64,000 nt of DNA from Candidatus Multivoradales bacterium (GTDB lineage Bacteria > Acidobacteriota > Thermoanaerobaculia > Multivoradales > JAHEKO01). The notes below the pieces were generated by a model. The model ran no database searches and had not been told where the DNA came from. It worked only from the letters and a program-made list of their open reading frames with translations. Position numbers and translations under genes: made by a program. The stretch lies in assembly GCA_965223855.1 (NCBI GenBank), contig CBDCXM010000009.1, positions 2,272,001-2,336,000 of the forward strand, read 5' to 3'. Positions 5,273 to 27,185 of the stretch are shown piece after piece; position 1 is the first letter of the stretch; every line of letters starts with the position of its first letter.

Positions 5273-5293
5273 CCGCTGAAGGCTGGGGGAACG

Positions 5294-6679
5294 ATGTTGC
5301 GACGACTCTCGAACCTTGTGCGCCCATCGAGCGCCTTCTTGCCGGCACTGTTGCTGATCCTGGCTTGCGGTGGCGGGGACTCCGGTGACGGCCCGCCCGG
5401 CGGCGGTCGCGGGCGTGGCGGTCCGCCGGGAGGTTTCGGCGGTGCACCGACACCCGCAGCGGCCGTGCCGGTCGAGACCACGCCGGTCGTGCGCCGCGAC
5501 ATCGCGGCCTTCATCGAAACCAACGGGACGCTGGAGGCGGAGGAAGAGGTCGACATCGTCGCCCGCACGGCCGGGCCGATCGTGTCGCTCCAGGCCGAAG
5601 AGGACGACACCGTGAAGGCGGGAGAGCTCCTCGCCCGCCTGGACCAGGATCAGATCCGGGCTCAGCTCGAGGTGTCGCGCGTCGCCCTCCAGGAGGCGGA
5701 GACCGCCTTCGAGCGGGCGGAGGCGCTCCAGCGAGCGAACCTCATCAGCGCGGAGGAGTACGACCGCGCCCGCAACTCGCTCGACTCCGCGCGCGCCGCC
5801 TTTCGCGGCAACGAGATCCAGATGGGCTACACCAACATCCGTGCCCCCTTCGGCGGGCTGATCGTGCGCCGCTACGTGAAGTTCGCGGAGACGGTCAGCG
5901 TCAACCAGCCGCTCTTCCGGCTTTCGGACTTCGACCCGCTGCTGTGCCCGATCCAGGTTCCGGAGCGCGAACTGTCGCGCCTCGCCGTCGGCCAGAAAGC
6001 GCATCTCACGGTCGATGCCTGGCGGGGTGAGCGGTTCGAGGCGAGCGTGCTGCGGCTCTCCCCAGTCGTCGACGCCGCCACCGGCACCATCAGGGTGACG
6101 CTCGAGGTCGAGGGGCGGGGCAAGCTCCGGCCGGGGATGTTCGCCAGCGTCTTCCTGCAGACCGAGACCCACGAGGACGCACTGGTGATTCCCAAGGCGG
6201 CGCTGGCGCTCGACAGCATCGGTGACGCGGTGTTCGTCGCCGTCGACGGCGCGGCGGCGCGGCGCGAAGTCCGCCTCGGAGTTCGCGAGGGAGATTCGGT
6301 CGAGGTGGTCGAAGGTCTCGCGGAAGGGGACGCGGTCATCTCGGTCGGCCAGGACTCGGTTTCCGACGGCACACCGATCACCGTGCTCGACGGGCCGGGC
6401 GCGGGCGAAGGTGCTGACGCTGAGTCGAGGGAGAGCGGCATGGCGCCCGATCCCGAGCGGCTGGAGCGCTTCCGCGAGGGGATGCGCGAGCGCGGCCTGA
6501 GCGAGGAGGAGATCGACCAGCGCCTGGAGCAGATGCGGGAGCGCTTCGGTGGTTCCGGTCCGCCGCAGGGGCGTCCGGCACCTGGTGAGGACGACTCCGC
6601 CGGCGGCGACTCCGGCGACAGCGACGGCGCCGCGGACGGTGCGAGTCCCGCCCAGGATCCCTCGGGCGGCAACGGCTGA
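5294..6679 (+). CDS. RND periplasmic adaptor (membrane fusion protein), probable lipoprotein
   Basis: Lipobox ILAC, IRAPFGG, LRPGMF and IPKAAL motifs. Confidence 0.92.
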   Translation: MLRRLSNLVRPSSAFLPALLLILACGGGDSGDGPPGGGRGRGGPPGGFGGAPTPAAAVPVETTPVVRRDIAAFIETNGTLEAEEEVDIVARTAGPIVSLQAEEDDTVKAGELLARLDQDQIRAQLEVSRVALQEAETAFERAEALQRANLISAEEYDRARNSLDSARAAFRGNEIQMGYTNIRAPFGGLIVRRYVKFAETVSVNQPLFRLSDFDPLLCPIQVPERELSRLAVGQKAHLTVDAWRGERFEASVLRLSPVVDAATGTIRVTLEVEGRGKLRPGMFASVFLQTETHEDALVIPKAALALDSIGDAVFVAVDGAAARREVRLGVREGDSVEVVEGLAEGDAVISVGQDSVSDGTPITVLDGPGAGEGADAESRESGMAPDPERLERFREGMRERGLSEEEIDQRLEQMRERFGGSGPPQGRPAPGEDDSAGGDSGDSDGAADGASPAQDPSGGNG

Positions 6680-6700: not shown

Positions 6701-9700
6701 ATGAAGCTGATCGAGCTCTCCACTCGCCGGCCGGTGACGGTCTTCATCTTCGCCGTCGCGGCGGTGGTGTTCGGCCTGGTGGCGCTCGGGCGGCTGGCGA
6801 CCGATCTGCTGCCGGACATCACCTACCCGTCGCTGACGGTGCGAACCGGCTACGACGGCGCGGCGCCGATCGAGATCGAGAGCCTCGTCACCCGGCCGAT
6901 CGAGAACGCGGCCGGCGTCGTCAACGGGGTGGTGCGGGTGAACTCGAGCTCACGGGCGGACGTCAGCGAGGTGACGCTCGAGTTCGGCTGGGGGACCGAC
7001 ATGGATCTGGCGGGGCTCGACGTGCGCGAGCGCCTCGACCAGATCGAGTTGCCGGACGATGCCGATCGCCCGGTGCTGCTGCGCTACGACCCGTCGCTCG
7101 ACCCGATCGTGCGGCTCGGAGTGAGTGGGGAAGACGACCTGATCCGCCTGCGTCTGCTCGCCGAAGAAGAGATCAAGCGTTCGCTCGAGCGGATCGAGGG
7201 GGTCGCCGGCGTGGTCGTGAGCGGAGGCCTCGAGGAAGAGATCCAGGTCGAGCTCGACGAGCGCCGGATGGCGAATCTCGGGCTCGATGCCGGCCTCGTC
7301 GTCACCCGCCTGGCGCAGGAGAACGTCAATCTCACCGGCGGGCGGCTCATCGAGGGGCAGAGCGAGTACCTGGTACGCACCCTTCAGGAGATCGTCCGAG
7401 CAGAGGATCTGGAGGAGATCGTGCTGACCAGCGATCAGGGGGCGATCGTTCGTCTGCGCGACGTCGGCACGGTTGTCACCGGCGCGAAGGAGCGCGAGAT
7501 CGTCACCCGCATCGACGGCAGCGAGAGCGTCGAGGTGGCGGTCTACAAGGAGGGCGGGACGAACACGGTCACGGTGTCGGACGCCGTGCAGCAGGGGATC
7601 GACGAGCTGCGCACCGAGCTGCGCCGGATCGATCCCAACCTCGAGCTGACCCTCGTCTCGGACCAGGCGCGCTATATCCGCCAGTCGATCTCCGAGGTTC
7701 TCAAGACGGCGGCGATGGGCGGCATCCTGGCGGTGCTGGTGCTCTACTTCTTCCTCCGTTCTTGGAAGACGACGTTCATCATCGGGGCGGCGATCCCGAT
7801 CTCGGTGGTGGCGACGTTCTTCCTCATGTACTCGCGCGACATCTCGCTCAACATCATGTCGCTCGGCGGGTTGACGCTCGGCATCGGCCTGCTGGTCGAC
7901 AACGCGATCGTCGTCCTCGAGGCGATCCAGCGACGCCGTGACCAGGGGGACGACGACGTCGAGGCCGCCGTCACCGGAGCCAGCCAGGTCGGTCGCGCCG
8001 TGATCGCCTCGACGCTGACGACGATCTGCGTCTTCCTGCCGATCGTCTTCGTCGAGGGGGTCGCCGGGCAGCTCTTCGGCGATCAGGCGATGACGGTCGC
8101 GTTCTCCCTCGTGCTGTCCCTGATCGTCGCGCTGACGGTGATCCCGATGCTCGCCTCGCGGCGCTTCTCGCCCTCGGAGGAAGGAGAGGAGCCGGCGGCC
8201 GACGAGTCGCAGGGTCGCCTCGCGTCCATCCGACGCGGGATCTCGAAGGTCTTCTTCCTGGCCGGAGTCTGGCTGGCCCGAGGGCTGCGCGCCGTACGCG
8301 ACGGGATCGCCTGGGTGGTGGACAAGCTGCTCGCCGTACCGCTCGCGCTCTTCGAGCGCGGCTTTGCGGCATTGGCCGGGCTCTATGCGAAGGTGCTCGA
8401 CGGCGCGCTCGCGCGGCCTATCGTCACGGTCGTAGTGGCCCTTGCGCTGCTGGCGGCGAGCCTCCTTCTGTTCCCGCTCCTCGGGAGCGAGCTGGTGCCG
8501 GAGATGATCCAGGGCGAGTTCTTCGTCGATCTCGAGTTGCCGCCGGGGACGCGGCTCGAGGTGACGGAGCGACGCGTCCGCGATCTCGAGCGCTTCGCCG
8601 CCGAGTTGGACGGCGTCGAAATGGTGTACGCCCTCGTCGGCAGCTCGAACGAACAGGGTGGCGTGTCGGGCGAGCGGCGCGAGAACCTCGCGCAGTTGAC
8701 GCTTCGCCTGACGCCACCGGTCGATCGCGACCGGGAAGAGGCGCTGATGGAACTTCTTCGCGAGCCGCTCGACCGACAGGAGGGACTCGAGTATCGCTTC
8801 GGGCGCCCGTCCTACTTCACCTTCAGGACGCCGGTCGAGTTCGAGATCCGCGGTTACAACCTTGAACTGCTCACCCGGCTGGCGAACGAGGCGGTGACGC
8901 GGGTGAGCGCGATCCCGGGGTTGTCGGACGTCAAGTCTTCGACCGAAGGGGGGAGCCCCGAGCTGCAGATTCGCTTCGATCGCGAACGGCTCGCCAACCT
9001 CGGCCTCAACCTGAGCGATCTCGCGTCCACGGTGCGCAGCAAGGTCCAGGGGACGATCGCCACCGATATCCAGCGCGACGACCGCACGATCGACATCCGC
9101 ATGCGCGCCGGCGAGGAGTTCCGCGACAGCGTCCAGGATCTGCTGGAGCTCACCGTCGCGCAGCGCGGCAAGACGGCGGTGCCGCTGTCGGCGGTCGCCG
9201 AGGTGGCTCAGGTCGAGGGGCCGGCGGAGATCCGGCGCTCGGAGGGCGATCGGATCGCCTTGATCTCGGCCAATCTCGTGGGGCGCGATCTCGGCTCGGT
9301 GACGGAGGAAATCGAGGCGACGATGGCCGGCCTGACGCTCCCGAGCGGTTTCGACTGGGCGATGGGCGGTCAGCAGGAGGAGATGGAGACGTCGTTCGAC
9401 AGCATGCGGATGGCGATCCTGCTGGCGATCTTCATGGTCTACCTGGTGATGGCCTCGCAGTTCGAGTCGCTGGTGCACCCGCTGGTGATCCTCTTCAGCG
9501 TCCCCTTCTCGCTGATCGGCGTGCTGGTGGCGCTGACTGTCGGCGGCATCGCGGTGAGCATCGTGGTTCTGATCGGGGTGATCCTCCTCACCGGGATCGT
9601 GGTGAACAACGCGATCATCCTGGTGGACTACACGAACTCGCTGCGGCGCGACGGGGCGAAGAAGCTCGAGGCACTGCGGCAGGCGGGCAAGGTGCGGCTG

Positions 9701-15194: not shown

Positions 15195-16742
15195 CTACTT
15201 GAAGATCTTGAAGAACAACCCGAAGAGCTTCGAAGCCGTAGGCGTCAACCGGGTCCGGCTCCAGGCGTCGCCCGCCTTCTTGATCACCTCGGCCTGCGTC
15301 GGGTAGGGGTGGATCGCGGAGGAGATCTTGCCGAGGCCGATGCCGTGGGTCATGGCGAGCGAGACTTCGCCGATGAGATCGCCGGCGTGCTCGGCGACGA
15401 TCGTCGCTCCGAGGATCTCGTCCGAGCCCTTCTTCACGTAGACCCGCAGGAACCCCTCGTCCTCGCCGTCGAGGATCGCCCGATCGACGCTCGACATCGG
15501 GATCTCGAAGGTGTCGAGCTCGACGCCGCGCTCCTCGGCCTCGCGCGGGTAGATGCCGACGTGAGCGACCTCGGGGCTGGTGTAGGTGCACCAGGGGATC
15601 ACCAGGTCGCTCGCCTTCTTGCGGCCGAAGAAGAGCGCGTTCTGGATCGCGATGCGGGCGAGAGCGTCTGCGGCGTGGGTGAACTTGAAGCGTGAGGCGA
15701 TGTCGCCGACGGCGTAGATCTTCTTGTTGGTCGTCTGCAGGCGGTCGTCCACGGTGACGCCGTGCTTCGAGTACTCGACACCGGCCGCCTCCAGGCCGAG
15801 GCCGTCGGTGTTGGGCTTGCGGCCGACCGAGACCAGCAGCTTCTCGACGTCGATCTCGAAATGCTCCTGGTTGCCGTGAACGAGGTCGGCATCGACCGAC
15901 AGATGCACGGTGCCGTCGTCGTTGCGCGAAAGAGTGGTGTTCTTGCCGCAGCAGTAGATCTTCACCCCGTCGGCGAGCATCTGCTTGCGGACGAGAGCGG
16001 AGGAGTCTTCCTCCTCGACGGTGAGGATGCGGTCCATCGCCTCGAGCAGGTGCACCTCGACGCCGAGACGGGCGAAGCTCTGGGCCATCTCGCAGCCGAT
16101 CGGGCCGGCGCCGATGATGCCGATCGACTTCGGCGGCTCGGTGAGGTTGAAGAGCGTTTCGTTCGTGAGGTACTCGACCTCGTCGAGACCGGGGATCGGC
16201 GGAGCCGAGGCGCGGGCGCCGGTGGCGACGATGGCGCGTCGGAAGCGCAACCGCTTGCCGCCGACCTCGACCGCATCGGAGGCGACGAAGGTGCCGTCGC
16301 CGAGGAACATGTCGATGCCGAGGCCGGAGAATCGCTTGGCGCTGTCGTGGTGGCTGATGCCGGCGCGCAGCTCGCGCATCCGTTCCATGGCGGCGGCGAA
16401 GTCCCCTTCGCCGCTCACCGGCGGGCCGCCGAAGCGCGCGGCGGCGGTGCGGGCGTCGTGCCAGGCGCGAGCAGCGCGGATCACTCCCTTGGAGGGGACG
16501 CAGCCGACGTTGAGACAGTCTCCGCCCATCAGATTGCGCTCGATGAGCGCCACCTTCGCTCCGAGCCCCGCGGCGCCGGCGGCACTCACGAGACCGGCCG
16601 TACCGGCACCGACGACGACGAGGTGGTAGCGGTCGGCCGGTTCGGGATTGACCCAGTCCGAGGGATGGACGTTGGCGACGAGTTCGCGATCGGCGGCGCT
16701 CGCCTCGAGCAGCTCGGTTTCAGGCTTGCGGAGCTCAGACAT
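15195..16742 (-). CDS. FAD-dependent pyridine nucleotide-disulfide oxidoreductase (mercuric reductase/dihydrolipoamide dehydrogenase-like)
   Basis: GAGTAG, GGDCLNVGCVPSK, GAGPIG and HPYPT motifs; no C-terminal CC pair. Confidence 0.88.
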   Translation of the reverse strand: MSELRKPETELLEASAADRELVANVHPSDWVNPEPADRYHLVVVGAGTAGLVSAAGAAGLGAKVALIERNLMGGDCLNVGCVPSKGVIRAARAWHDARTAAARFGGPPVSGEGDFAAAMERMRELRAGISHHDSAKRFSGLGIDMFLGDGTFVASDAVEVGGKRLRFRRAIVATGARASAPPIPGLDEVEYLTNETLFNLTEPPKSIGIIGAGPIGCEMAQSFARLGVEVHLLEAMDRILTVEEEDSSALVRKQMLADGVKIYCCGKNTTLSRNDDGTVHLSVDADLVHGNQEHFEIDVEKLLVSVGRKPNTDGLGLEAAGVEYSKHGVTVDDRLQTTNKKIYAVGDIASRFKFTHAADALARIAIQNALFFGRKKASDLVIPWCTYTSPEVAHVGIYPREAEERGVELDTFEIPMSSVDRAILDGEDEGFLRVYVKKGSDEILGATIVAEHAGDLIGEVSLAMTHGIGLGKISSAIHPYPTQAEVIKKAGDAWSRTRLTPTASKLFGLFFKIFK

Positions 16743-17544
16743 GCTGTGCCTCTCCTTCCGGATTCGTCTCTTGCGCAGACTGGCTTTGCACCTGCTCGTC
16801 GAGCGCCCGCTTGGCGATCCGGCCGACGTAGATGGCGACCGCCACCGCGGCGACGAGGCCGACGGCGAACGTGATCCAGCCGCCGGCTCCACGCTCGACT
16901 TCTGCCCCTCCCGCTACGGCGGCGAGGCTGCCGATCGCGCTGCCGTAGTAGACGTAGAGGAACGTCCCCGGGATCATGCCGACGGAAGCGGCGACGTAGT
17001 GCCAGAAGCTCACCTTGGTGAGCCCGAGCCCGTAGTTCATGAGGTTGAACGGGAAGATCGGGGCCAGCCTCAGCAGGGTGACGATCTTGAATCCCTCGTT
17101 GGCCACCGCGCCGTCGATCGCCGCGAACTTCGGGTTGCCGGCGATCTTGTTCTCGACCCAGCCGCGCGCCACGTAGCGGGCGACGAGGAACGCCAGTGCC
17201 GAACCGATGGTGGCGCCGAGGAAGACGATCACGGTCCCCTTGGCGAGCCCGAAGATCGCTCCTGCCGCCAGCGTCAGGAGTGACCCGGGAATGAAGCCGA
17301 CCGTGGCGACGGCGTAGCCGAGAACGAAGACGACCGGTCCCCAGACGCCGAGCCCTTCGACCCACTCGGCGAATTGCGGGATGTAGCCTCCCAGCTGCTT
17401 GCCGAGGTAGAGGATGCCGCCGAGAGCGACGATGCTGACGACGATCTTGAGCGCGAGGCCGGTCTTTGAGGCCTTGGTGTTCGAACCGGCATCGCTCGAA
17501 CCTGCATCGCTCGAACCCCTGTCGGGGCCAGCCGCTTCAGTCAT
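16735..17544 (-). CDS. TVP38/TMEM64 (VTT/DedA superfamily) membrane protein
   Basis: PGSLLTLAAGAIFG and LLRLAPIFPFNLMNY motifs; overlaps the start of the oxidoreductase. Confidence 0.9.
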   Translation of the reverse strand: MTEAAGPDRGSSDAGSSDAGSNTKASKTGLALKIVVSIVALGGILYLGKQLGGYIPQFAEWVEGLGVWGPVVFVLGYAVATVGFIPGSLLTLAAGAIFGLAKGTVIVFLGATIGSALAFLVARYVARGWVENKIAGNPKFAAIDGAVANEGFKIVTLLRLAPIFPFNLMNYGLGLTKVSFWHYVAASVGMIPGTFLYVYYGSAIGSLAAVAGGAEVERGAGGWITFAVGLVAAVAVAIYVGRIAKRALDEQVQSQSAQETNPEGEAQHV

Positions 17545-17700
17545 GGGAACACTCCTGTGGGTGGGGTGGGAGGCAGCACGGCGCAGGTGAGCGTCGCGAG
17601 CCGTCTGCACCACTTACGAGACTGTCGACGCGGCGGATTGCCGCCACGAGCGGCCGGTCCGGGGATCTGATCCCCGGCGGCGAGTGCCGCCCGGCGGGAC

Positions 17701-18063
17701 TCAGGCGGCGACCCAGAGCGCAGCGGCGAGCAGAATGCCGCTCAGGCCCAGGAACATGCCGCCGACCGCGGCGAGGTTGCCCCACAGGGTCCCCTCCTTG
17801 GCGGTCTTGCCGAGGATCATCAGGCTGATCGAGGCGATCGCGAGCTGGACGAGCACGAACAGGAAGGTCGTGGAGCCGGAGAGCGAGGCGCCCGGCTCCT
17901 GGCCGGCAGCGGCGCTCCAGTTCATCCCGGCGATGACGGCGGCGACCGCCAACACTGCGAGAGCAATGAGGTCCCATCTCTTGGGCTTGGGGCCCAGTGA
18001 AGGAAGTTTCAAGGCACGCTCCTCCCGTACGGTTCGGTTCGTGGAACGCGAGGATGGTAGCAC
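17701..18063 (-). CDS. Small hypothetical membrane protein (about 3 TM helices; start uncertain)
   Basis: Three hydrophobic segments filling the intergenic gap. Confidence 0.6.
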   Translation of the reverse strand: MLPSSRSTNRTVREERALKLPSLGPKPKRWDLIALAVLAVAAVIAGMNWSAAAGQEPGASLSGSTTFLFVLVQLAIASISLMILGKTAKEGTLWGNLAAVGGMFLGLSGILLAAALWVAA

Positions 18064-18087: not shown

Positions 18088-18118
18088 AAACGAGCCCGGC
18101 GCAGACGCGCCGGGCTCG
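18088..18118 (-). terminator. Probable intrinsic terminator after the BON-LysM gene
   Basis: 12-bp perfect stem CGAGCCCGGCGC-AGAC-GCGCCGGGCTCG followed by TTT on the minus strand. Confidence 0.6.
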
Positions 18119-18144: not shown

Positions 18145-18636
18145 TCAGCCGTCCTGCGGGATGCGCAGCACCTGACCGGGGAAGATCTTGTCGGGGTGCT
18201 CGAGCATCGGCTTGTTGGCCTCGAAAATCTGGTGGTACTTGTTGGGGTCGCCGTAGTGCTCCTTGGAGATCTTCGACAGGGTGTCACCCGAGACGACGGT
18301 GTAGAAGACCGCCTTCGGGCCGGTGACCTCGAGACGGTCGTCCACGGTAGCGATGCCGGCGGTGTTGCCGATCGCCAGGGCGATCTTCTCCTTGGTCGCC
18401 TGGTCGGCGACGCCGCCCGCCACGCGCACGGTGTCACCGTCGACGTGGATCTGCAGGTCGTCGATGTCGAAACCGAGCGCCTTCACGTGGCGCATCAGGC
18501 TGAGCGCCCGCATCGCGTCGTTGGCTGCGTCAGCGCGCTTCTCGGCCTCGGTCGGCTGCGGCGGCGCCTTGACGGAGTCGTCGTCCTGGCCGAGCAGCTT
18601 GGCGCCGGCTTCCTTGATGAATGAAATGAGTCCCAT
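18145..18636 (-). CDS. BON-LysM domain protein (YgaU/Kbp-like potassium-binding protein)
   Basis: MGLISFIKEAGAKL N-terminus, BON domain, YTVVSGDTLSKIS...IFPGQVLRIP LysM domain. Confidence 0.9.
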   Translation of the reverse strand: MGLISFIKEAGAKLLGQDDDSVKAPPQPTEAEKRADAANDAMRALSLMRHVKALGFDIDDLQIHVDGDTVRVAGGVADQATKEKIALAIGNTAGIATVDDRLEVTGPKAVFYTVVSGDTLSKISKEHYGDPNKYHQIFEANKPMLEHPDKIFPGQVLRIPQDG

Positions 18637-18694
18637 CGGAAATCCCTCCTCTTGTGGAGTCTATGTGCGTGAAGTTGCCGAGTGCGCTGTGCGC

Positions 18695-19291
18695 TCAGCG
18701 ATTGCGGAGCATCTTGCCGAGAAGGCCGGCTCCGAGAGAAGCGACATCGTCGGCGAAACTGCCGTCTCCGTCGCGGTCCAGCAGTTTACCGACCATGTCC
18801 ATCGCCTGTCCCGCCTCCGACGGCGAATGGTCGCGCTCACCGCGCAGCATCGATTCGAGACCTCGCGAATCGAGCCCCGAGCCGCGGCGCTGCTTGCCGA
18901 GGGCACCGAGGACGATCGGCGCCAGCATGGCGAGCAGCTGCCCGGCCTTGCCCGAATCGAGGCCGCTCATCCTGCCGAGACCGCTCTCGACGGCGCCCCG
19001 GCTGTTGCCGAAGACGTGGCCGAGAATGCCGTCGCCGCTGCGGCCGGGGCCGCGGGTGACGTAGCCGGCGAGATCGTCGAGGATGCTGCCGTCGTGGTCA
19101 CGGTCGAGTGCCGCGCCGAGCGCATCCGCGCCGCCGCTCTGCTGAGTGTTGCGCGCGAGGCCGCCGAGCAGCATCGGCAGCGCGCCGGCGATCGCCTTCG
19201 AAGCGAGGTCGTCGTCGATGCCGAGCTGGCGGCCGATCTGCCGGGTGGCGTCGCCGCCGAGCTGCTGCATCAGAGTATCCATCAAAGACAT
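18695..19291 (-). CDS. DUF937 family protein
   Basis: DHDGSILDDL, GDGILGHVFG and LLDRDGDGS..DD motifs. Confidence 0.8.
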   Translation of the reverse strand: MSLMDTLMQQLGGDATRQIGRQLGIDDDLASKAIAGALPMLLGGLARNTQQSGGADALGAALDRDHDGSILDDLAGYVTRGPGRSGDGILGHVFGNSRGAVESGLGRMSGLDSGKAGQLLAMLAPIVLGALGKQRRGSGLDSRGLESMLRGERDHSPSEAGQAMDMVGKLLDRDGDGSFADDVASLGAGLLGKMLRNR

Positions 19292-19318
19292 GGGTGATTC
19301 TCCTGGAAGTTGTGTGGA

Positions 19319-21166
19319 TCAGGCGTCTCGCGAGCGCTCGAGCAGTGCCTGCGCACGGTCGCGGCCGCCGAGCCCGAAGGCGAGACCGACCGCGAGGGCG
19401 GCACCGCCGACGACGGCGGCGACGACCATCTGCACGACGCCTTCACCGACGCCGAGCTGGCTCAGGCCCATGCTGGCGCCGAGGAAGATGATCGCGTAGC
19501 GGGCGATGTTCGACAGCAGCGCCTGGTGCTCGGAGCCGCCGAGAGCGCTGGAGACGAGATTGCCGACATAGTTGCCGATCGACAGCGCCGCGAGGATCAC
19601 GACGAGGCCGACGGCGAGGTTCGGCAGGTAGCGGATGAGGTCGCCGACCAGCAGCGACAGGCGATCGAGGTTGAGCGTCGCCAGTGCCTGTTCGGCGGTC
19701 AGAAGCAGGATGAGCGCCATCACGACGGTGCCGCCGATGGCCGACAGCGAGGCGCCGCCGTCCTTCGGCTGCAGGAAGTGCAGGCCGAACTTCGACGGCA
19801 GAGCGTCGAAGCCGACGCCGCTGAGGAACGAAGTGACGATTCCTCGAACGGTGTTGGCGATGTAGTAGCCGATGGCCACCACGATCAGACCGCCGAAGAT
19901 CAGCGGCACGGCCGACAACAGCTGCTCGAGGGTGTTGCGCACCGGGGTCGAGATCGCCTCGATCTTGAGTGCGTCGACGGCGGCGACGATCACCGGCACG
20001 AGAATGAAGAAGTAGGCCACCGTCCCTGCGATCTCGGAGACCGGCTTGACCCCTTCCGAGCGGCCGAAACCGACACGGGCAGCCATTCGATCGGCGCCGA
20101 CCGCCGCCAGGAAGTTGGTCGCGATCTCTCGAACCACGGTGGCGACGATCATGCCGATGCCGACGAGCACGATCGCGGCGACGATGTTCGGGATGTAGCC
20201 GAGCGCCGTCGTCAGCATTCCGGTGAGCGGAGCGACCAGCGACTGCTGGCCGAGCGCCTCGAGGAACGGGGGCAGGGCGAAGAGCAGGACGGCGTAGAAC
20301 ACCAGCCGGCCGATCATGCTGCTCGCCATCACCGTCTCGCCCTTGACCTCGCGCGGCGGGAAGTACTTCTCGGTGCGCTGGTCGAAGCCGACGGCGTGGA
20401 GGCCGCGGGTGGTCAGCATCTTCAGGATCGACGCGACGATCCACGCCACGAGCAGGATGACGAACGCCTTGAGCAGCGCCGGGATGAGCCCGAGGATCGT
20501 GGAGACGACCCCCTGGAGCGGACCCGCCACCATCTGCAGCTCCAGGGCGTCGAAGAAGGCGACGAAGCCGAGCAGCAGGATCACCCACTTGACGACCGCT
20601 CCGCCGAGCTCGTCGACGGTGGTCTTCTCGCCCTTCTCGTTCTCGAGGAACCTGCCGAGACCCCAGTCACGGGCGGCACGCTCGTCGACGGTGGTGAGGC
20701 TCAGAAGCTTCGTGGTTCCGGCACCCAGAGCGAGCGCCAGGATCCAGGCGACGGCGAGGATCAGCAGCGCCTTGAGCAGCACCGGCAGGGCGGCGGCGAA
20801 GCGCTCCCACATCGGCACCAGTGCCTCGGACCACAGTGCCTTGCCCTGGTCGCGAACGCCGGCCGTACCGGCCTGCGCGGCCTCGGCCATCTCACCGGCG
20901 GCGCTGCCGACCGCGCCGGTGATCGTGGTCGGCGGATTGCCGGCGGCGGGCTCGGCAGTCTGCGCCGGAGTCGGCTCCGCCGCTGCGGGTTCCGTGGCGG
21001 CCGGCTCCTGAAGCGCCGGCTCCTGAAGCGCCGGGTCCTGAGGCGCGGGTTCCTGCGCGGCCGGTTCCGTCGCGGCGGGCTCCTGAGCGAGCACCGGCGC
21101 GGCGACTCCGGCGAGGGCGACGACGAGCGCGAAGCCGAGAATCTGCAGTCGAGTTCTCTCGAGCAT
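19319..21166 (-). CDS. CmpX-like mechanosensitive-channel-associated membrane protein with multiple conserved TM-helix repeats
   Basis: Repeated (Y)LP-N/A-I..A..I units and C-terminal GLAFGLGGRD; signal peptide plus acidic Pro-rich linker; start at ATG 21166. Confidence 0.82.
   Translation of the reverse strand: MLERTRLQILGFALVVALAGVAAPVLAQEPAATEPAAQEPAPQDPALQEPALQEPAATEPAAAEPTPAQTAEPAAGNPPTTITGAVGSAAGEMAEAAQAGTAGVRDQGKALWSEALVPMWERFAAALPVLLKALLILAVAWILALALGAGTTKLLSLTTVDERAARDWGLGRFLENEKGEKTTVDELGGAVVKWVILLLGFVAFFDALELQMVAGPLQGVVSTILGLIPALLKAFVILLVAWIVASILKMLTTRGLHAVGFDQRTEKYFPPREVKGETVMASSMIGRLVFYAVLLFALPPFLEALGQQSLVAPLTGMLTTALGYIPNIVAAIVLVGIGMIVATVVREIATNFLAAVGADRMAARVGFGRSEGVKPVSEIAGTVAYFFILVPVIVAAVDALKIEAISTPVRNTLEQLLSAVPLIFGGLIVVAIGYYIANTVRGIVTSFLSGVGFDALPSKFGLHFLQPKDGGASLSAIGGTVVMALILLLTAEQALATLNLDRLSLLVGDLIRYLPNLAVGLVVILAALSIGNYVGNLVSSALGGSEHQALLSNIARYAIIFLGASMGLSQLGVGEGVVQMVVAAVVGGAALAVGLAFGLGGRDRAQALLERSRDA
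20966..21085 (-). repeat. 15-bp coding tandem repeat, 8 units (QEPAA-like pentapeptide)
   Basis: QEPAA TEPAA QEPAP QDPAL QEPAL QEPAA TEPAA AEPTP. Confidence 0.85.
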
Positions 21167-21238
21167 GGTCCTACTCTCCTTCCCAGATGGCCTTAGGCCG
21201 AGTGATACCTGCAAGGATACCGCTCGCCTGATGTTTCT

Positions 21239-21264
21239 GACCGTTCCGTCCCCGGATAGTCACA
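21239..21264 (-). promoter_or_regulatory. Putative ECF sigma promoter for the CmpX-like/DUF937/Kbp arm
   Basis: Minus strand reads TGTGACT-N14-CGGTC, identical to the motif upstream of mscL. Confidence 0.7.
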
Positions 21265-21348
21265 CCTCCGCCGCCTCAGTGGCCTCGCGGCCGCGTCCGG
21301 TAGGATCGTCAGGCTGCAATCCATTGTCAGAGGGAACCGGGGTCGGCA

Positions 21349-21374
21349 TGTGACTTCGTCACCGCTCGCCGGTC
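21349..21374 (+). promoter_or_regulatory. Putative ECF sigma promoter for the mscL arm
   Basis: TGTGACT (21349-21355), 14-bp spacer, CGGTC (21370-21374). Confidence 0.7.
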
Positions 21375-21447
21375 CAGAGAAGCTCAGGTCGGTCATCCGG
21401 GCGCCGGTCGAATCCGCGTCCATCTTTGAAAAGGGGAGGAACCACGT

Positions 21448-21870
21448 ATGTTGAAGGAATTCAAGGACTTCGCCGTCAAGGGCAACGTGCTCGACATGGC
21501 GGTCGGTATCGTCATCGGCGGTGCTTTCACGCCGATCGTGAAGTCGCTCGTCGACGACCTGCTGATGCCGATCATCGGCCTCTTCACCGGCGGCGTCGAC
21601 TTCACCGACAAGTTCATCGTGCTGAAGGCCGGTGCCGAGGGAGCCGCCTACTCGACGCTCGCCGCGGCGAAGGAAGCGGGAGCGGTGACGCTCAACTACG
21701 GCGCCTTCATCAACACGATCTTCACCTTCCTGATCGTCGCTTTCGCGATCTTCATGATGGTCAAGACGTTCAATCGCTGGAAGGAAGAAGAAGCCGAAGC
21801 GCCGGCCGCTCCCCCGCAGGACATCGTGCTGCTGGAGGAGATCCGCGACGCACTGAAGTCCAACGGCTGA
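21448..21870 (+). CDS. mscL: Large-conductance mechanosensitive channel
   Basis: [29 protein letters not shown] and LLEEIRDAL motifs. Confidence 0.97.
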
Positions 21871-21873
21871 ACC

Positions 21874-21914
21874 CGGGCGCGGCCCGGCCTCACGGTCGGG
21901 CCGCCTCCCGTTTT
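21874..21914 (+). terminator. Terminator-like hairpin after mscL
   Basis: GCGGCCCGGCC-TCAC-GGTCGGGCCGC followed by CTCCCGTTTT. Confidence 0.5.
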
Positions 21915-21933
21915 CGTCAGGAGTGCGCTTTTC

Positions 21934-22368
21934 TTGAATCGCAGTCGGCAGCAGTTGCTGAGACTCGTCGCCGTCGGCCTGGTGGCCGCCGGCGCCTGGC
22001 TCTACCAGCAGTACGGGGCCGGTACGTCCGTCGGCGTCTCGGGCGAACTCGCCGAGGTGATCCGAACGCGCGCTTCGGGCGCGATGGTCGAGGTCGAAGG
22101 GGTGGTTTCCAGGACGCTTTCGGACGACCTCCACGGCGATCGCCATCAGCGGTTCATCCTCGATGCCGGTAGCGGCAACACCCTGCTCGTGGCTCACAAC
22201 ATCGACCTCGCACCGAGAGTGCCGATCGATCTTGGCGACGAGGTGACGGTGCGCGGCCAGTACGAGTGGAACGACAAGGGTGGCGTGCTGCACTGGACCC
22301 ATCACGATCCGGACGGGTCGCGCCGCGACACCGGCTGGATCCGTCACCAGGGGCGTACCTACGAATGA
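21934..22368 (+). CDS. DUF3465 family protein (membrane-anchored)
   Basis: GDRHQRFIL, LLVAHNIDLAPR, GQYEWNDKGGVLHWTHHDP motifs. Confidence 0.85.
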   Translation: MNRSRQQLLRLVAVGLVAAGAWLYQQYGAGTSVGVSGELAEVIRTRASGAMVEVEGVVSRTLSDDLHGDRHQRFILDAGSGNTLLVAHNIDLAPRVPIDLGDEVTVRGQYEWNDKGGVLHWTHHDPDGSRRDTGWIRHQGRTYE

Positions 22369-22996
22369 CCCTCCAGGAGCTCGAGGACCGGGAGCTGGTC
22401 GAGAAGGTGCGCCGGGGGCCGGGCGACACCCGACCGTTCGAGGTGCTGGTCGAGCGCTACCAGTCGAAGATCCTCGCCAACTGCCGCTATCTGACCCGTT
22501 CGCCGAACGACGCCGAGGACCTCGCGCAGGAGGTCTTCGTCAAGGCGTTCTTCGGGCTCAAGCGCTTCGAAGGGCGCTCCAAGTTCTCGACCTGGCTGCA
22601 GCGCATCAAGATCAACCACTGCCTGAACTTCAACCAGAAGCGGCACGGCAAGCACATGGTCGACATCGAGGAGCCGGGCATGGAGGTCGCGGCCGGTCTC
22701 TTCGACGAGGCGCGCGGCGAGAAGGACCTCGAGAGCTTCGACGAACGGCGCCGCATCGCGCGAGTGCTCGACGCCATGTCGTCCACCCTGAGGGTCCCGC
22801 TCCTGCTGCGCGACCTGGACGGCATGACCTACCAGGAGATCGCCGAGCAGCTCGACATCGGGCTGTCGGCCGTCAAGATGAGAATCAAGAGAGCCCGTGA
22901 GGAGTTCCGTCAGCGCTACGACGAGGTCGTGGCCGGCGAGGTTGCGGCGGCCACCTGCTCGAATCAGGCCGGAGCGCGGCGTCGGAGATCGCATGA
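22365..22996 (+). CDS. ECF-family RNA polymerase sigma factor (net 1-bp deletion near the 3' end causes read-through in the ORF track)
   Basis: DAEDLAQEVF, FSTWLQRI and YQEIAEQLDIGLSAVKMRIKRAR motifs; ATGA overlaps at both ends. Confidence 0.85.
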
Positions 22997-23290
22997 GCGA
23001 CGAGCGCTTCGACGGCCTCGAGGAGGACGACATCGACACCGGCCAGCCGATCGCCCAGCTGGCGTCGCTGCGCGAGGAGCCGCAGATCGGGTTCTTCGGA
23101 CGGATCCGGCGCTCGATTCGAGCGGCGCCAGCTCGGCTCCGACATGGCCGAGCTGTCGGTGTCCGGCCTCGCGGCGGTGTTTCTCGAGCTGCTGCGTGCG
23201 ATGTTCGGGCTGGCCGAGGAAGCCTCGGCGAGGCCTCGAGGGACCAACCACGAGTCGGAGCAAGGACCGGGTAAAGGAGACGCAACATGA
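22993..23290 (+). CDS. Small (about 98 aa) putative anti-sigma/partner protein, split by one extra base near 23117
   Basis: Removing one base gives MSDERFDG...GFFGRIRRSIERRQLGSDMAELSVSGLAAVFLELLRAMFGL...GDAT*, ending in an ATGA overlap with the next gene. Confidence 0.6.
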
Positions 23291-24119
23291 ACGAAACTCT
23301 GGCCGTCAAGGACCAGCTCGTCCTCACGTTTCGCAATCTGATCACCGAGATCGTCGCGGCGACTCCGAGGGTGCTCGTCTGGCGATCGCGCTCTTTCGTC
23401 GTTGCCATCCTGTCGTGGCGAAGGGGATTCGAGAAGCTCCTCAAGATGCCGTGCTGACGAGGATCCGGTTCGACAGCCTGCTGTCCCGAAGGTCGGTGTC
23501 GATCAGGCGCTGCAGCGGATCGGGCTGCGCCAGCTGATGAGCGACTTCATCCCGCGGACCGCCTACTTCCTGCTGCTGTTCCTGTTTGCGCGGGCTGCGG
23601 CCGACGCGCTCGGTCTGACGGCCGTCTCCAGCGCCATCGGCACCTTCCTCGGCTACGTGCCCAACCTGATCGCCGGCATCGTCATCGTGCTGCTCGGCAG
23701 CACGGCCGGGCAGGTGGCCGGGCTCGGCGGTCTCGACGGCAGCGGAAAACTCGGGCATCGAGTTCGGCTCCACCCTCGGCAAACTCGTCTCGGCGCTGAT
23801 CCTGTTCGTGGCGGGCATCATGGCGCTCGGGCAGCTCCAGGTCGACACCGACATCATCCGGGTTGTCACGACCTGCTTCCTCGCCGGCCTGGCGCTCGCC
23901 TTCGCGCTTTCCTTCGGCCTGGGGACGCGCGAGATTGCCCGCAACGTCATTGCCGGCTTCTATGCCCGCAAGGTGTTCGAGGTCGGCAAGGAGATGGAGA
24001 TCGGCGACGAGCGTGGCAAGCTGGCGGCGATCACGCCGACCCAGATCCTCCTCGAGCAGGACGGTCGGACCGTGGCGATCTCGAACAGCGTACTGGTCGA
24101 TCAGGTGATCAAGCAGTAG
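23287..24119 (+). pseudogene. Small MscS/CmpX-like mechanosensitive channel protein, frameshifted (possibly sequencing errors)
   Basis: AAGGAG RBS and ATG 23287; TPRVLV, FLGYVPNLIAG, SFGLGTREIARNVIAGFY and the beta domain FEVGKEMEIGDERG...ISNS lie in different frames. Confidence 0.72.
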
Positions 24120-24126
24120 CCGGCCG

Positions 24127-25563
24127 TCAACGTCCGGCGGGCTGGTGCTCGGGCCGCAGCAGGTCGAAGACGGTCTTGACCGGCGCGAACGTCGCCGCCG
24201 GGACCTCGACGAACAGCGTGTTCCACCGGGCCATCGCGCCGTTCCACAGCCCGGGCCGCTCCAGCCCCAGCAGCGCCCTGCCTTCGTGACTCTTGCGGCT
24301 GACGAAGGCGGTCGTGGGGTCGACGAACGCTTCGAGGTCGAAGGCGGTGCCGTCCGGGCGCCGCAACACGCAGACGAGATCGACCGGGTTGAAGTGCGTG
24401 GAGCCCGCGACGATCGCCGCCTGATCGGAATCGCCATGGTCGATCTGCGACGACTCGACGATCTGCCGCGATTCGCTGCCGTCGGCGTGCCGCACCCAGA
24501 ACGGGCCGCCGCCGGGCTCGCCCTCGTTGCGGACCATGCCGCACAGCCTCAGCGGCCGTGACAGCCGGTCGTGCACCCACCTCTCCAGATCGCCGGTTCG
24601 CGGAGCGTCGAGATCGAGCGCCGCGGCGACGCGCGGTACCGCTTCGGACATCGGAAGCGTCGCGGCGGTCGTCAGCTCCCGCGAGCGAAGAACCGCTTCG
24701 CCGATCAGATGGCGCTTCCACGAGACGACTTCCGCCTGGCGCCACTCCGGCTGGATGTTGTCGATGTTCTTGATCGTGACGAGGTCGCCGTCGAGGCGCT
24801 GGAGGTTGTCGAGCAACGCTCCATGACCGGAGGGCCGGAGCAGGAGCTCGCCTGCAGAGGTGCGGAACGGCCGGCCTTGCAGATCGATCGCCAGGGTGTC
24901 GGTCGCCGGACGTTGGGTGGAGAAGTCGACCTCGAGGCTCCCGGCGAGATCGCTCGAGCGCTCGAGCGCACCGCGAAACGCCCCCATGTGCTCGGGAGAG
25001 ACGGTGAAATGTGCGCGCCCGGCGGTACCGGCGAGACCACCCGCTTCCACGAGGTGCTCCTCGAAGGCGGTGCGGCTGCCGTCGGGGTAGGTGTGGAAGC
25101 TCAACAGGCCCTTCGGCAGGGCGGCGTAGCCCAGGCCCGCCGGATCGAGCAGAGCCCCGGCCCAGTCGGCGGCGCGGTCGGTGTCGCGGCCGGTCCGGCG
25201 AATCGCCGCTTCGAGACGTTCGCCGAAAGAGAACGAGCGCCGCTCGGCGAAGAGCCGGCGTACGGCCTCCGGCTCACCTTCCATGAGCTCCCGGAACATC
25301 CGCGTCGCGGCGCCGGAGGCGGGCACGAACTTGGTGATTCGCCGCGCTTCGGAAGCCTCTCGCCACGCTTCGAGCCGGCGGCCGCCGTCCGCGTCGTCGA
25401 GCTGATGGATGCCGTCGCCGACGGTGCAGGCGCGCGCCAGTCTCAGCGGGCGGGGCGGTTCTCGCAGCAGCTCGAGCTGGCGTTGAGCCTCCTCGGGAGC
25501 GATGCCGCGCCTCTCGAGCTGGTCGAGGTCCTCGGGGCGGAGGGAGGCGGGGGAGGAAGGCAC
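24127..25563 (-). CDS. DUF4301 family protein (nucleotide-diphospho-sugar transferase-like fold)
   Basis: KFVPASGAATRMF, RPSGHGALL, IKNIDN, NEGEPGGGPFW, THFNPVD and PGLWNGAMA motifs. Confidence 0.88.
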   Translation of the reverse strand: MPSSPASLRPEDLDQLERRGIAPEEAQRQLELLREPPRPLRLARACTVGDGIHQLDDADGGRRLEAWREASEARRITKFVPASGAATRMFRELMEGEPEAVRRLFAERRSFSFGERLEAAIRRTGRDTDRAADWAGALLDPAGLGYAALPKGLLSFHTYPDGSRTAFEEHLVEAGGLAGTAGRAHFTVSPEHMGAFRGALERSSDLAGSLEVDFSTQRPATDTLAIDLQGRPFRTSAGELLLRPSGHGALLDNLQRLDGDLVTIKNIDNIQPEWRQAEVVSWKRHLIGEAVLRSRELTTAATLPMSEAVPRVAAALDLDAPRTGDLERWVHDRLSRPLRLCGMVRNEGEPGGGPFWVRHADGSESRQIVESSQIDHGDSDQAAIVAGSTHFNPVDLVCVLRRPDGTAFDLEAFVDPTTAFVSRKSHEGRALLGLERPGLWNGAMARWNTLFVEVPAATFAPVKTVFDLLRPEHQPAGR

Positions 25564-25697
25564 GAGGTTCGGGAGCGGCGGCTGTCGGACGCACCGGACG
25601 GCTGTCGATGCCCGGCCCCGCGACGAGCGCGAGTATACCGGCGTACAATCCTGCCCGTTCCGACTACCGACCCACCGTCCGATCCCACCACCGACCG

Positions 25698-26531
25698 ATG
25701 TCGATCTTCCAGGCGATGATCCTCGGCCTCGTCCAGGGGCTGCTCGAGTTCCTGCCGATCAGCTCGTCCGGCCATCTGATCCTCGCTTCCAGGGTGCTCG
25801 GATGGCCCGATCAGGGACTCGCGTTCGACATGGCGGCCCACGCCGGTTCGATGGTGGCGATCGTCGCCTACCTGCGGCGCGACGTCGTCGCGCTCGTCCG
25901 GGGGGCCCTCGACCTCGTCCGATGGCGGCACAGCGACGAGGCGCGACTGGCCCTTCAGTTGGCGGTCGCCTCGATTCCGGTGGTGGTCGCCGGTGCGTTG
26001 CTGATCGACTTCGTCGCCACCTCCGGCCGCAGCCTCGCGGTGCTGGGAGTGACGTCGATCCTCTTCGGTGCTCTGTTGTGGGCGGCCGACCTCTACGCTC
26101 GCCGCACGACTGCGGGTAGAAAGGACGTCGATGCTGAGACGGTGCGGGCTCCATGGTCGTGGCGATCGATGCTCGTCGCCGGAGCCGCTCAGGCGCTGGC
26201 GGTGATCCCCGGGACCTCCCGCTCCGGGGTGACGATGTCCGCAGCTCTCTTCGACGGCCTGTCGCGCACCCGCGCGGCGCGCCTCTCGTTCCTGCTGTCG
26301 CTGCCGGTCGGCCTGCTGGTGGCCGCCAAGGACGGCTGGGAGATCGTCGCCGACCCGTCGGCGGTCGGGGGCTGGGCCGCCCTCGGTGTCGGCTTCGTCG
26401 CGGCCGCGGTCTCCGCGTATCTCGCCATCGACTGGCTGCTGCGCTGGTTGAAGCGCCGCGGTTTCGGCGGCTTCGCGCTCTACCGCATCGCCCTCGGCGT
26501 CGTGCTCCTCATGTTCCACTGGAGGGGCTGA
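25698..26531 (+). CDS. uppP: Undecaprenyl-diphosphate phosphatase (BacA)
   Basis: QGLLEFLPISSSGHL and PGTSRSG motifs. Confidence 0.95.
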   Translation: MSIFQAMILGLVQGLLEFLPISSSGHLILASRVLGWPDQGLAFDMAAHAGSMVAIVAYLRRDVVALVRGALDLVRWRHSDEARLALQLAVASIPVVVAGALLIDFVATSGRSLAVLGVTSILFGALLWAADLYARRTTAGRKDVDAETVRAPWSWRSMLVAGAAQALAVIPGTSRSGVTMSAALFDGLSRTRAARLSFLLSLPVGLLVAAKDGWEIVADPSAVGGWAALGVGFVAAAVSAYLAIDWLLRWLKRRGFGGFALYRIALGVVLLMFHWRG

Positions 26532-26597: not shown

Positions 26598-27185
26598 GTG
26601 ACCGCGACCCCCAGTGACGCGCAGGCGATCGCCGCCGCCCTCGAGGGGTCGGAGGAGGGGTATCGCCTCCTCGTCGAGCGCTATCAGAAGCCGGTTCTGA
26701 GCCTGATCCGGCGGATTGTGCGCGACGCCTCGTGGGCCGAGGATCTCGCTCAGGAGGCGTTCGTCAAGGCGTTCCGGGCGCTGGACACCTTCCAGCAGCA
26801 GCGCAAGTTCTCCAGCTGGCTCTTCAAGATCGCCCACAACACGGCGCTCGACGCGCTGCGCCGCAAGCGGATCGACACGGTGCCGCTGGAAACGTCGGAT
26901 CCGGACCGGGGCGATTTGCTAGATTTGCTGCCTGGCGACGACCTCGACACCCCCGAAAGCGCACTGCGCAGCCGCGGCCTGGCCGCGGCGATCCAGACGG
27001 CCATCGGACGGCTGCGGCCGGACTACCGGAGCGCCGTGGAGCTGAGGTTTCTGCAGGGCCTCGCCTACGAGGAGATCGCCGGGATCATGGACCTCCCGCT
27101 GGGGACGGTGAAGACCCACCTGCACCGGGCGCGCAAGGCGCTGATGGAGCATCTGAGCGAGTCGGGATGGACCCCCGAAGGATGA
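26598..27185 (+). CDS. ECF sigma factor (SigW/RpoE-like)
   Basis: AEDLAQEAF, FSSWLFKIAHN and YEEIAGIMDLPLGTVKTHLHRAR motifs. Confidence 0.92.
   Translation: MTATPSDAQAIAAALEGSEEGYRLLVERYQKPVLSLIRRIVRDASWAEDLAQEAFVKAFRALDTFQQQRKFSSWLFKIAHNTALDALRRKRIDTVPLETSDPDRGDLLDLLPGDDLDTPESALRSRGLAAAIQTAIGRLRPDYRSAVELRFLQGLAYEEIAGIMDLPLGTVKTHLHRARKALMEHLSESGWTPEG

Follow-up and report, generated by a model that had tools for sequence, protein, structure and literature searches.

A cluster of eight genes arranged in two divergent arms, among them the gene of an extracytoplasmic function (ECF) sigma factor followed directly by those of a small protein and an MscS-type mechanosensitive channel, lies in the genome of a Candidatus Multivoradales bacterium (Acidobacteriota) and may well represent an acidobacterial form of the SigX-CfrX-CmpX type of system described in Pseudomonas aeruginosa. 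The stretch of DNA analysed, the window, comprises 64,000 nucleotides with a G+C content of ~65-72% (G000:C9:2272001-2336000, where G000 is the source genome of 4.52 Mb in 9 contigs), and positions given without a contig or locus label are window coordinates. Genes were called from a listing of open reading frames (ORFs) combined with Pfam and NCBIfam scans and with profile searches against the Protein Data Bank (PDB).

The right arm, on the plus strand, begins with mscL (21448..21870), which encodes a large-conductance mechanosensitive channel of 140 amino acids (aa) that matches PF01741 over profile positions 1-123 of 123 (E 1.3e-46). It continues with the gene of a 144-aa DUF3465 protein (21934..22368; PF11948, E 6.3e-35), the stop codon of which overlaps the start of the sigma gene in an ATGA at 22365. 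The ECF sigma factor gene (22365..22996), the small partner gene (22993..23290) and the gene of a minimal channel of MscS type, extended at the N-terminus by helices (23287..24119), complete the arm; the true lengths of their products are 209, 98 and 273 aa, and the genes as assembled contain 2, 1 and 11 spurious bases respectively. The left arm, on the minus strand, consists of genes for a long membrane protein (19319..21214, 631 aa counted from the first TTG), a 198-aa DUF937 protein (18695..19291; PF06078, E 4.1e-36) and a 163-aa BON-LysM protein resembling Kbp/YgaU (18145..18636; Pfam LysM 4.3e-10, BON 8.5e-7). It is closed by a terminator-like hairpin on the same strand (18091..18118) with a 12-bp stem containing 11 G-C pairs, located just past the BON-LysM stop codon. 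Between the arms lie two predicted ECF-type promoters, recognized as motif matches: GTGACTA-N14-CGGTC for the left arm (21239..21263, minus strand) and GTGACTT-N14-CGGTC for the right (21350..21374, plus strand), the latter ending 73 nt before the mscL start. All eight genes listed in a first-pass annotation of the window are present on the strands it gave, under Pfam and NCBIfam names that agree with its own, and the motif that it noted upstream of both arms is likewise there (plus strand 21350-21374 and minus strand 21263-21239).

The last four genes of the right arm had also been described as joined by ATGA stop/start overlaps. The strings occur on the plus strand at 22365, 22993 and 23287 but only the first is in frame as the sequence is written. 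In the sequence as written, the sigma frame stays open as far as 23537, the small ORF closes at 23274 and the channel gene is split among three frames; the lengths of the three intervals (22365-22996, 632 nt; 22993-23290, 298 nt; 23287-24119, 833 nt) are none of them divisible by three. A frame plot based on G+C content at third codon positions (GC3) places switches of the coding frame at ~22950, ~23110, 23450-23490 and ~23725. Two relatives, G002 and G003, carry intact genes, encoding 204 and 199 aa for the sigma factor, 88 aa each for the small protein and 273 aa each for the channel. A three-way DNA alignment of the window with both shows insertions only: two in the sigma tail (~22944-22961, downstream of region 4), one in the small gene (~23117) and eleven in the channel gene (ten within ~23380-23490 and one near 23720). 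Logan contigs from two runs, X1 and X2, omit single bases at 22944/22947, 22959/22961, 23117, 23380, 23383 and 23398, as well as at 23413 (two), 23428 and 23718/23722, and one Logan contig shows 10 gaps across 23125-23698; the two runs, at ~4-5x depth, are of one sample that is possibly the source of the genome and hence are not independent. With 2, 1 and 11 bases removed, the genes measure 630, 297 and 822 nt, encode 209, 98 and 273 aa, and the remaining ATGA overlaps fall in frame.

These disruptions could be read as biological frameshifts in a decaying module, the sigma, small and channel genes being true pseudogenes. Fourteen indels inside 1.2 kb of an otherwise open region might suggest as much, and the supporting contigs are shallow (~4-5x). 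All 14 differences, however, are insertions relative to two relatives, the contigs of both runs omit the extra bases at matching places, and substitutions preserve the coding GC3 signature in every frame piece. A database protein (P0254) that is near-identical to the window small protein stays in frame through the 23117 site. Furthermore, a hidden-Markov frame scan on GC3 across the 9-contig genome found ~190 unexplained same-strand frame switches, with 10 clusters of at least three, a result that fits patchy consensus errors. We consider decay of the module very improbable. Because the contigs omit the extra bases and the relatives' genes are intact, the frameshifts of the window copy are, to judge from these comparisons, assembly errors and not gene decay, and the genes are intact in the organism. 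Other genes of the assembly are probably broken by patchy indel errors as well. In practical terms, this long-read-style assembly contains clustered insertion errors that disrupt real genes. The protein analyses described below used intact orthologues, and no corrected window sequence was built. The genes, overlaps and motif of the first-pass annotation are thus real, in frames that assembly insertions have broken in the window.

Further frame switches with no nearby stop were seen in the window at ~11497, ~37513, ~56456 and ~56599, and elsewhere in the genome, for example at C2:286217-289454 and C9:3191198-3193251. P0254 is garbled after the 23117 site and probably derives from another error-bearing assembly. 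Another database match, P0198, has the N-terminal half of a small protein joined to the C-terminal half of a channel, and probably arose through a deletion or an error of assembly.

The sigma factor contains regions 2 and 4 (Sigma70_r2, 6e-15; Sigma70_r4_2, 1.6e-14) and, in Pfam, neither region 3 nor region 1, the composition of an ECF (sigma-70 group 4) factor. The G002 orthologue scores 78.1 bits with TIGR02937 (sigma70-ECF, cut-off 42.9), and sequence identity between the window protein and its intact orthologues is 78% for that of G002 (204 aa) and 73% for that of G003 (199 aa). The best matches among solved structures are of the RpoE/AlgU type (8z6g_B, 5.6e-34; 6in7_B, 6e-34; 1or7_A, sigma-E, 1.1e-33). 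When the NCBIfam SigX model (NF007222) is applied to the source genome, this sigma factor ranks first among nine matches, with 111.4 bits against 89.2 for the next. In a maximum-likelihood tree, 17 sigma factors encoded beside a small protein and a channel form a single branch (support 100/98), apart from 10 other ECF sigma factors; this outgroup is small (8 from G000 and 2 from relatives), and the loci supplying the 17 were found via the channel or the small protein.

The channel encoded two genes after the sigma factor has the core of the MscS family. A profile built from seven orthologues matches a 171-aa heptameric ‘Small-conductance mechanosensitive channel’ in the PDB (9sdg/9seh) over residues 115-272 (E 9.2e-9), and also E. 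coli MscS (2oau, ~1e-3) over the transmembrane (TM) helices and the beta domain. PF05552 is found twice in the intact orthologues, and PF00924 in some orthologues (e.g. L019). In the AlphaFold model (pLDDT 73.4), helices extend to residue 226 and four strands follow at 232-262; all 21 Foldseek matches of this model at E<=1e-3 are MscS-family chains, at a low TM-score of ~0.27. The Gly/Ala-rich character of the pore-helix region is conserved. Both the PDB profile and Foldseek therefore point to a pore-lining TM3 followed by a beta domain, the arrangement that marks MscS. In contrast to E. coli MscS, there is no C-terminal alpha/beta domain (PF21082) detectable with Pfam, and the protein ends ~10 residues past the beta domain. 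On the basis of the profile searches and the model, the 273-aa protein is a minimal MscS lacking the C-terminal alpha/beta domain and bearing ~110 extra N-terminal residues. Against the 171-aa chain of 9sdg/9seh, channel residues 115-272 are matched to residues 6-158, a stretch that takes in the TM helices and the beta domain, and both proteins end just past the beta domain; the acidobacterial channel differs in the ~110 additional N-terminal residues, which hold a further PF05552 helix. It differs from minimal MscS channels also in that its gene is tied to that of a sigma factor.

The small protein belongs to a family to which neither Pfam nor NCBIfam gives a name. One search returned 80 matches, and another, of 1.84 billion representatives, gave 496 clusters at E<=1e-3, with lengths almost all of 72-112 aa. 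Members share an acidic N-terminus, a D-x-G-x-P-I/V-x-x-L motif, a helix with R-x-R-x-x-I-x-R-R-x-L and a last helix with a conserved Glu. This last helix is borderline hydrophobic, with a median best 19-residue Kyte-Doolittle mean of 1.46, and 52 of 148 members reach at least 1.6. In the protein Atlas the nearest clusters are unnamed and acidobacterial, and the nearest one bearing a family is zf-HC2 (0.79, below the lead threshold).

The conservation of the sigma-small-channel triad was followed in two ways. A scan with the channel alignment, using one genome per species, gave 9 loci from Acidobacteriota, Gemmatimonadota and Actinomycetota, one of which (L021) is an unrelated full-length MscS and was left out of the counts. 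Seven of the remaining eight carry an ECF sigma factor (195-213 aa), an unnamed small protein (77-96 aa) and a PF05552 channel (271-280 aa) in the same order; the eighth, L019, has the channel without sigma factor or small protein. A profile search with the small protein across 251 Acidobacteriota genomes, sampled evenly across the phylum, was positive in 11 including G000 (9 of 162 genera), and all 10 other loci hold the complete triad in identical order. Taken with the window, the triad is contiguous in the order sigma, small, channel in 18 of 19 loci, and a small protein of 77-99 aa adjoins the sigma factor at every triad locus. Linkage of homologous sigma factors to channel genes in other genomes, the absence of which the first-pass annotation would have taken as refuting its proposal, is thus borne out by the neighbourhoods. 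One triad, L020, belongs to the Longimicrobiales (Gemmatimonadota), and many channel homologues bear Gemmatimonadota names. The module is patchy in its distribution, present in ~4% of the sampled acidobacterial genomes, and rigid wherever it is present; of 30 relatives, only 4 have orthologues at an identity of at least 53% (one of the four, G005, was left out of the analysis). A tblastn search of the channel against plasmids gave no match.

The genes are also tightly packed. The sigma-small junction has a stop/start overlap of 4 or 8 nt in 12 of 17 cases and the small-channel junction an overlap of 4-11 nt in 13 of 17; these counts come from ORF tables in which the start is the first in frame, so that some starts are uncertain. 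The gene order and packing support the view that the sigma factor, the small protein and the MscS-like channel form a conserved, tightly packed unit. The surroundings vary more. The mscL gene adjoins the triad in 5 of 19 loci (the window, L013, L014, L015 and L042), a DUF937 gene does so in L014, L015, L016 (a weak match), L038 and L042, a BON-LysM gene is adjacent in 3 of 19, and among triad loci the DUF3465 gene is found in the window and L013 only.

The L019 channel (2718-3638) is 93% identical to that of L018 and lies directly behind a uvrA-like gene on a 6.8-kb contig.

Upstream of both arms lies the sequence GTGACT(T/A)-N14-(C/G)GGTC, each copy directed at its own arm (plus strand 21350-21374, GTGACTTCGTCACCGCTCGCCGGTC; minus strand 21263-21239, GTGACTATCCGGGGACGGAACGGTC). 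A divergent pair occurs at the equivalent place and in the same orientation in L013, L014, L015 and L016. Only the strict form of the motif, GTGACT...GTC, is used for the claims made here. It is present upstream of the sigma operon, in the sense orientation, in 15 of 18 triad loci; L035 and L036 have a GTGACC variant there, and L020 has no motif at that place. The 17 foreign loci contain 28 strict copies, ~25 of which, from a reading of the ORF tables, are directed at a nearby gene start. Apart from the sigma operons, the targets are genes for PF05552 proteins, DUF937 or dodecin, PG_binding_1, DUF481, EAL and DUF4332 proteins and an OprF-like porin. The DUF481 and EAL (c-di-GMP) genes may, from these motif positions, belong to the regulon in some lineages. 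The layout of the motif resembles the published AlgU/RpoE-type consensus GAACTT-N16/17-TCTNN (as given in sections of PMC7641640), and its co-inheritance with the sigma operon suggests that the sigma factor uses a GTGACTT-N14-(C/G)GGTC promoter.

Across the source genome the strict motif has 28 matches, 12 of them in non-coding DNA, which makes up 14.7% of the 4.52 Mb; for 30 permuted control hexamers the mean is 8.1 non-coding matches of 43.9. It is therefore the placement and not the number of copies that is unusual. Three further strong copies of GTGACTT-N14-CGGTC lie in non-coding DNA at C9:2247621(+), C9:2649720(+) and C9:538001(-) (L030, L031 and L032). Behind them are, in turn, an aconitase-family gene, a Zn_protease gene paired with one for a 7TM inactive-transglutaminase protein, and a gene for a LysM-FecR protein followed by one for a dCache Ser/Thr kinase; these loci are candidate extra members of the regulon. 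The first-pass annotation had called the regulon self-contained, which is doubtful given these three copies elsewhere, and the regulon is probably not fully so. An autoregulated ECF regulon that takes in mscL and the genes of the long PF05552, DUF937 and Kbp-like proteins fits the presence of the same ECF-type promoter on both arms, the use of that promoter by the sigma factor being the part that we infer.

It could instead be that the two arms are unrelated neighbours, that the motif belongs to another regulator and that the sigma factor controls neither mscL nor the left arm. The case for sigma control of the arms is drawn from sequence, the genome total of the motif does not exceed that of the permuted controls, and mscL and BON-LysM genes adjoin only 5 and 3 of the 19 loci. 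Yet, like ECF promoters, the motif consists of two blocks at a fixed spacing and is directed at genes, and it resembles the AlgU/RpoE-type consensus quoted above (PMC7641640, in part). It also travels with the sigma operon in distant genomes (15 of 18 loci) whatever lies upstream, be it uvrA-like, PG_binding_1, DAO or other genes. On balance an accidental association of the arms appears improbable.

Additional motif copies were seen at individual loci. In L016 an FHA-EAL gene and a gene for a DUF481 outer-membrane protein flank a second divergent pair (8071-8169), and in the Gemmatimonadota locus L020 a GTGACC variant at 6867 precedes a DUF481 gene. In L043 an OprF-like porin gene (3966-5678, minus strand), encoding a beta-barrel, an OprF domain, TSP3 repeats and an OmpA domain, lies directly upstream of the triad with a motif at its start. 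Other candidate elements were set aside. GGAAC-N-CGTC as a promoter had one site only and was dropped for GTGACTT-N14-GGTC, and the loose pattern GTGAC-N16-19-GTC has a high background (72 matches in 139,853 bp, both strands). A motif-like string at 18128-18104 on the minus strand is doubtful as a promoter, as it overlaps the terminator hairpin and is not kept in L013 or L014, and by our own estimate the 10-nt direct repeat ACCGCTCGCC is not above chance.

The long membrane protein of the left arm matches PF05552 (E 1.8e-51) with five ‘conserved TM helix’ stretches, and scores 270.8 bits with the NCBIfam ‘msc’ model NF033912 (cut-off 100). Its true start is likely to be the ATG at 21166, from which a sequence resembling a signal peptide, MLERTRLQ..., is read. 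It has no beta-domain match in Pfam and no MscS core in comparison with the PDB, and ‘channel’ is here a family name and a putative property. The first-pass annotation had labelled this protein CmpX-like; by size, position and MscS core, however, the counterpart of CmpX is the 273-aa protein. The BON-LysM protein scores 183.7 bits with NF008399, the model of the E. coli LysM/BON protein (equivalog cut-off 134), and its residues 43-162 match PDB entry 7pvc, ‘Potassium binding protein Kbp’ (E 3.9e-33). It thus shares with E. coli Kbp (YgaU) the BON and LysM domains and a score above the equivalog cut-off, but its gene lies in an operon with a predicted ECF promoter together with genes for the PF05552 and DUF937 proteins, and K+ binding is putative here.

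A comparable arrangement is known from P. aeruginosa, where the ECF sigma factor SigX, the small soluble CfrX (a putative anti-sigma factor) and the MscS-like CmpX have been proposed to form a mechanosensing complex (PMC8999054, in part). It is the only case that this source gives. SigX belongs to group ECF102 (PMC8999054, PMC7826278, sections of both). CfrX has 84 aa and CmpX is a predicted small MscS, and both are in the SigX regulon (sections of PMC7641640). CmpX, CfrX and OprF homologues are conserved in subgroup ECF102s1, and the channel in s2 and s5; within part of the supplement of PMC7826278, ‘mechanosensitive’ is found under ECF102 only. That supplement describes ECF102 as distributed over Bacteroidetes (66%) and Gammaproteobacteria (34%), with promoter motifs that are not conserved (PMC7826278, in part). 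The sigX strains were grown under low osmolarity in one study (PMC4362757, in part), and sections of another state that the SigX promoter consensus is ‘not precisely defined’ and treat the roles of CfrX and CmpX as hypothetical (PMC7641640). A full-text literature search for an acidobacterial mechanosensitive channel with an ECF sigma or anti-sigma factor matched only an ECF classification paper.

The acidobacterial module resembles P. aeruginosa cmaX-cfrX-cmpX-sigX-oprF in that an ECF sigma factor gene stands beside those of a small protein and a small MscS-type channel, the likeness being one of size, layout and description. As in the conserved context of ECF102, an MscS-type channel gene accompanies the sigma factor, here two genes after it and in 18 of 19 loci. 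L043, with its OprF-like porin gene directly upstream of the sigma gene and a motif before it, recalls sigX-oprF. The published mechanosensing model is likewise tied to envelope, membrane-fluidity and low-osmolarity conditions (sections of PMC8999054, PMC7641640, PMC7826278 and PMC4362757). Unlike the Pseudomonas system, the acidobacterial one has mscL and the genes of the long PF05552 protein, the DUF937 protein and the Kbp-like protein under the same promoter type. On this analogy the concept is not new. The first-pass annotation did not recognize a characterized system at this locus, although a published precedent exists in SigX-CfrX-CmpX of ECF102 (PMC8999054, PMC7826278, in part), and its interpretation is partly supported: a conserved, probably autoregulated sigma-channel unit, of a kind already recognized. 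A second comparison is with sigma factors of the RpoE/AlgU type and their anti-sigma factors RseA/MucA, which share with the module the best solved-structure matches of the sigma factor, a similar promoter and an envelope-stress theme. The acidobacterial unit, however, has no RseA/MucA-like single-pass anti-sigma gene or protease-cascade genes; its partner is a ~80-100-aa protein of unnamed family, followed by the channel.

Drawing on the gene identities, the conserved triad, the separate sigma clade, the promoter kept on both arms and the MscS core, we put at roughly 0.55 the probability that the cluster is an acidobacterial representative of the SigX-CfrX-CmpX type, an autoregulated ECF sigma module with a small anti-sigma factor coupled to an MscS-like channel. 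The sigma factor would recognize GTGACTT-N14-(C/G)GGTC and transcribe two units from the divergent copies at 21239-21374. The first would be its own operon, consisting of mscL and the genes for DUF3465, the sigma factor itself, the small protein and the minimal MscS channel, and the second the opposite operon, encoding the long PF05552 membrane protein, the DUF937 protein and the Kbp-like BON-LysM protein. Through the overlapping stop/start codons the 98-aa helical protein would be made in a fixed ratio with the sigma factor, and it would keep the latter inactive. By analogy with published systems, its most likely function is indeed that of a short anti-sigma factor. It may in turn be coupled to the MscS-like channel, the gene of which follows directly and which would be the sensor: if membrane tension, turgor or the state of the envelope changed so as to alter the channel, the sigma factor would be freed. 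The output would be more release valves together with envelope or K+-related proteins.

Several observations weigh against this reading. The small protein has no match in Pfam or NCBIfam, and hence no anti-sigma domain was detected with these libraries, and its monomer model is a long helix of low confidence (pLDDT 63.1). Among the family members inspected the sole name is ‘hypothetical protein’, and none falls in a large many-genome cluster, so that kinship with Pseudomonas CfrX is putative; the 10 representatives of 84 aa that were looked up, out of 150, lie in clusters of 1-3 members. The anti-sigma role is argued from position, size and analogy. The sigma factor scores well under the cut-off of the SigX model (111 against 194 bits), and the NCBIfam models for SigX, RpoE, SigW and one unnamed sigma factor score it alike, all below their cut-offs. 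The L019 channel stands without sigma factor or small protein, and the genome-wide count of the motif is no higher than that of permuted controls. The gene order is sigma, small, channel as opposed to cfrX-cmpX-sigX, the hosts are Acidobacteriota and Gemmatimonadota as opposed to Bacteroidetes and Gammaproteobacteria, and the promoter is conserved whereas the motifs of ECF102 are not (sections of the sources cited above). With these differences in hosts, gene order and promoter, and with an OprF-like gene adjacent to the triad in 1 of 19 loci (L043), the module falls outside the published range and layout of ECF102.

The properties of the small protein would also suit another role within a co-expressed triad, in which it serves the MscS-like channel as an accessory subunit or membrane partner and is no anti-sigma factor. 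The channels would then be plain regulon products and not sensors, and sigma activity would depend solely on transcription of the sigma gene or on a different regulator encoded elsewhere. The last helix of the protein is marginally hydrophobic (median 1.46; 52 of 148 members reach 1.6), its conserved Glu would suit packing against channel helices, and no anti-sigma domain was detected in it with Pfam or NCBIfam. Even for CfrX, the role in Pseudomonas is given as ‘putative’ only in the relevant sections of the literature (PMC8999054, PMC7641640, PMC7826278). Nevertheless, the small gene is joined as tightly to the sigma gene as to the channel gene, and the channel of L019 persists without the small protein. 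Tight gene coupling is the usual layout of sigma/anti-sigma pairs, and an ECF sigma factor activating its own promoter normally has to be held in check. A pure channel partner seems to us doubtful.

The SigX-type reading can be taken further, tentatively, in a form that we judge possible but unlikely in its full detail. In that form the small protein would be a membrane-docked anti-sigma factor, and membrane tension, by way of channel gating, would free the sigma factor directly and with no protease, in an independent or anciently diverged counterpart of SigX-CfrX-CmpX. The marginally hydrophobic, Glu-bearing C-terminal helix would sit between the additional helices at the N-terminus of the minimal MscS heptamer, and the freed sigma factor would feed back onto the release valves of the cell (MscL and the PF05552 protein) and onto its K+-binding protein. 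Given the clear promoter, such an arrangement would lend itself to dissection far more readily than its Pseudomonas counterpart.

The activation of SigX-type sigma factors is still open in Pseudomonas (PMC7641640, in part). The acidobacterial form may be a cleaner model: it is a compact three-gene unit, its sharply conserved promoter permits regulon prediction, and the proteins it is predicted to control are osmotic release valves and envelope proteins in their own right. Its main value may therefore be that a clean promoter and a compact regulon could render the SigX-type mechanism testable. If the small protein were a channel-tethered anti-sigma factor, membrane tension would be transduced directly into transcription.

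The module is adjoined on both sides by genes that recur in relatives. Downstream of the channel gene are genes for a DUF4301-like protein (24127-25563, minus strand), a BacA/UppP undecaprenyl-diphosphatase (25608-26531, plus strand) and a second ECF sigma factor (26598-27185, plus strand). L013 has DUF4301 and the second sigma gene at the equivalent place and L014 has BacA and the second sigma gene; the second sigma factors form a tight clade of their own. Beyond the left-arm terminator, on the minus strand, are genes for a 120-aa multi-helix membrane protein (17701-18063) and a VTT/DedA-type protein (16735-17613), and in L014 the same pair is likewise placed after the BON-LysM gene.

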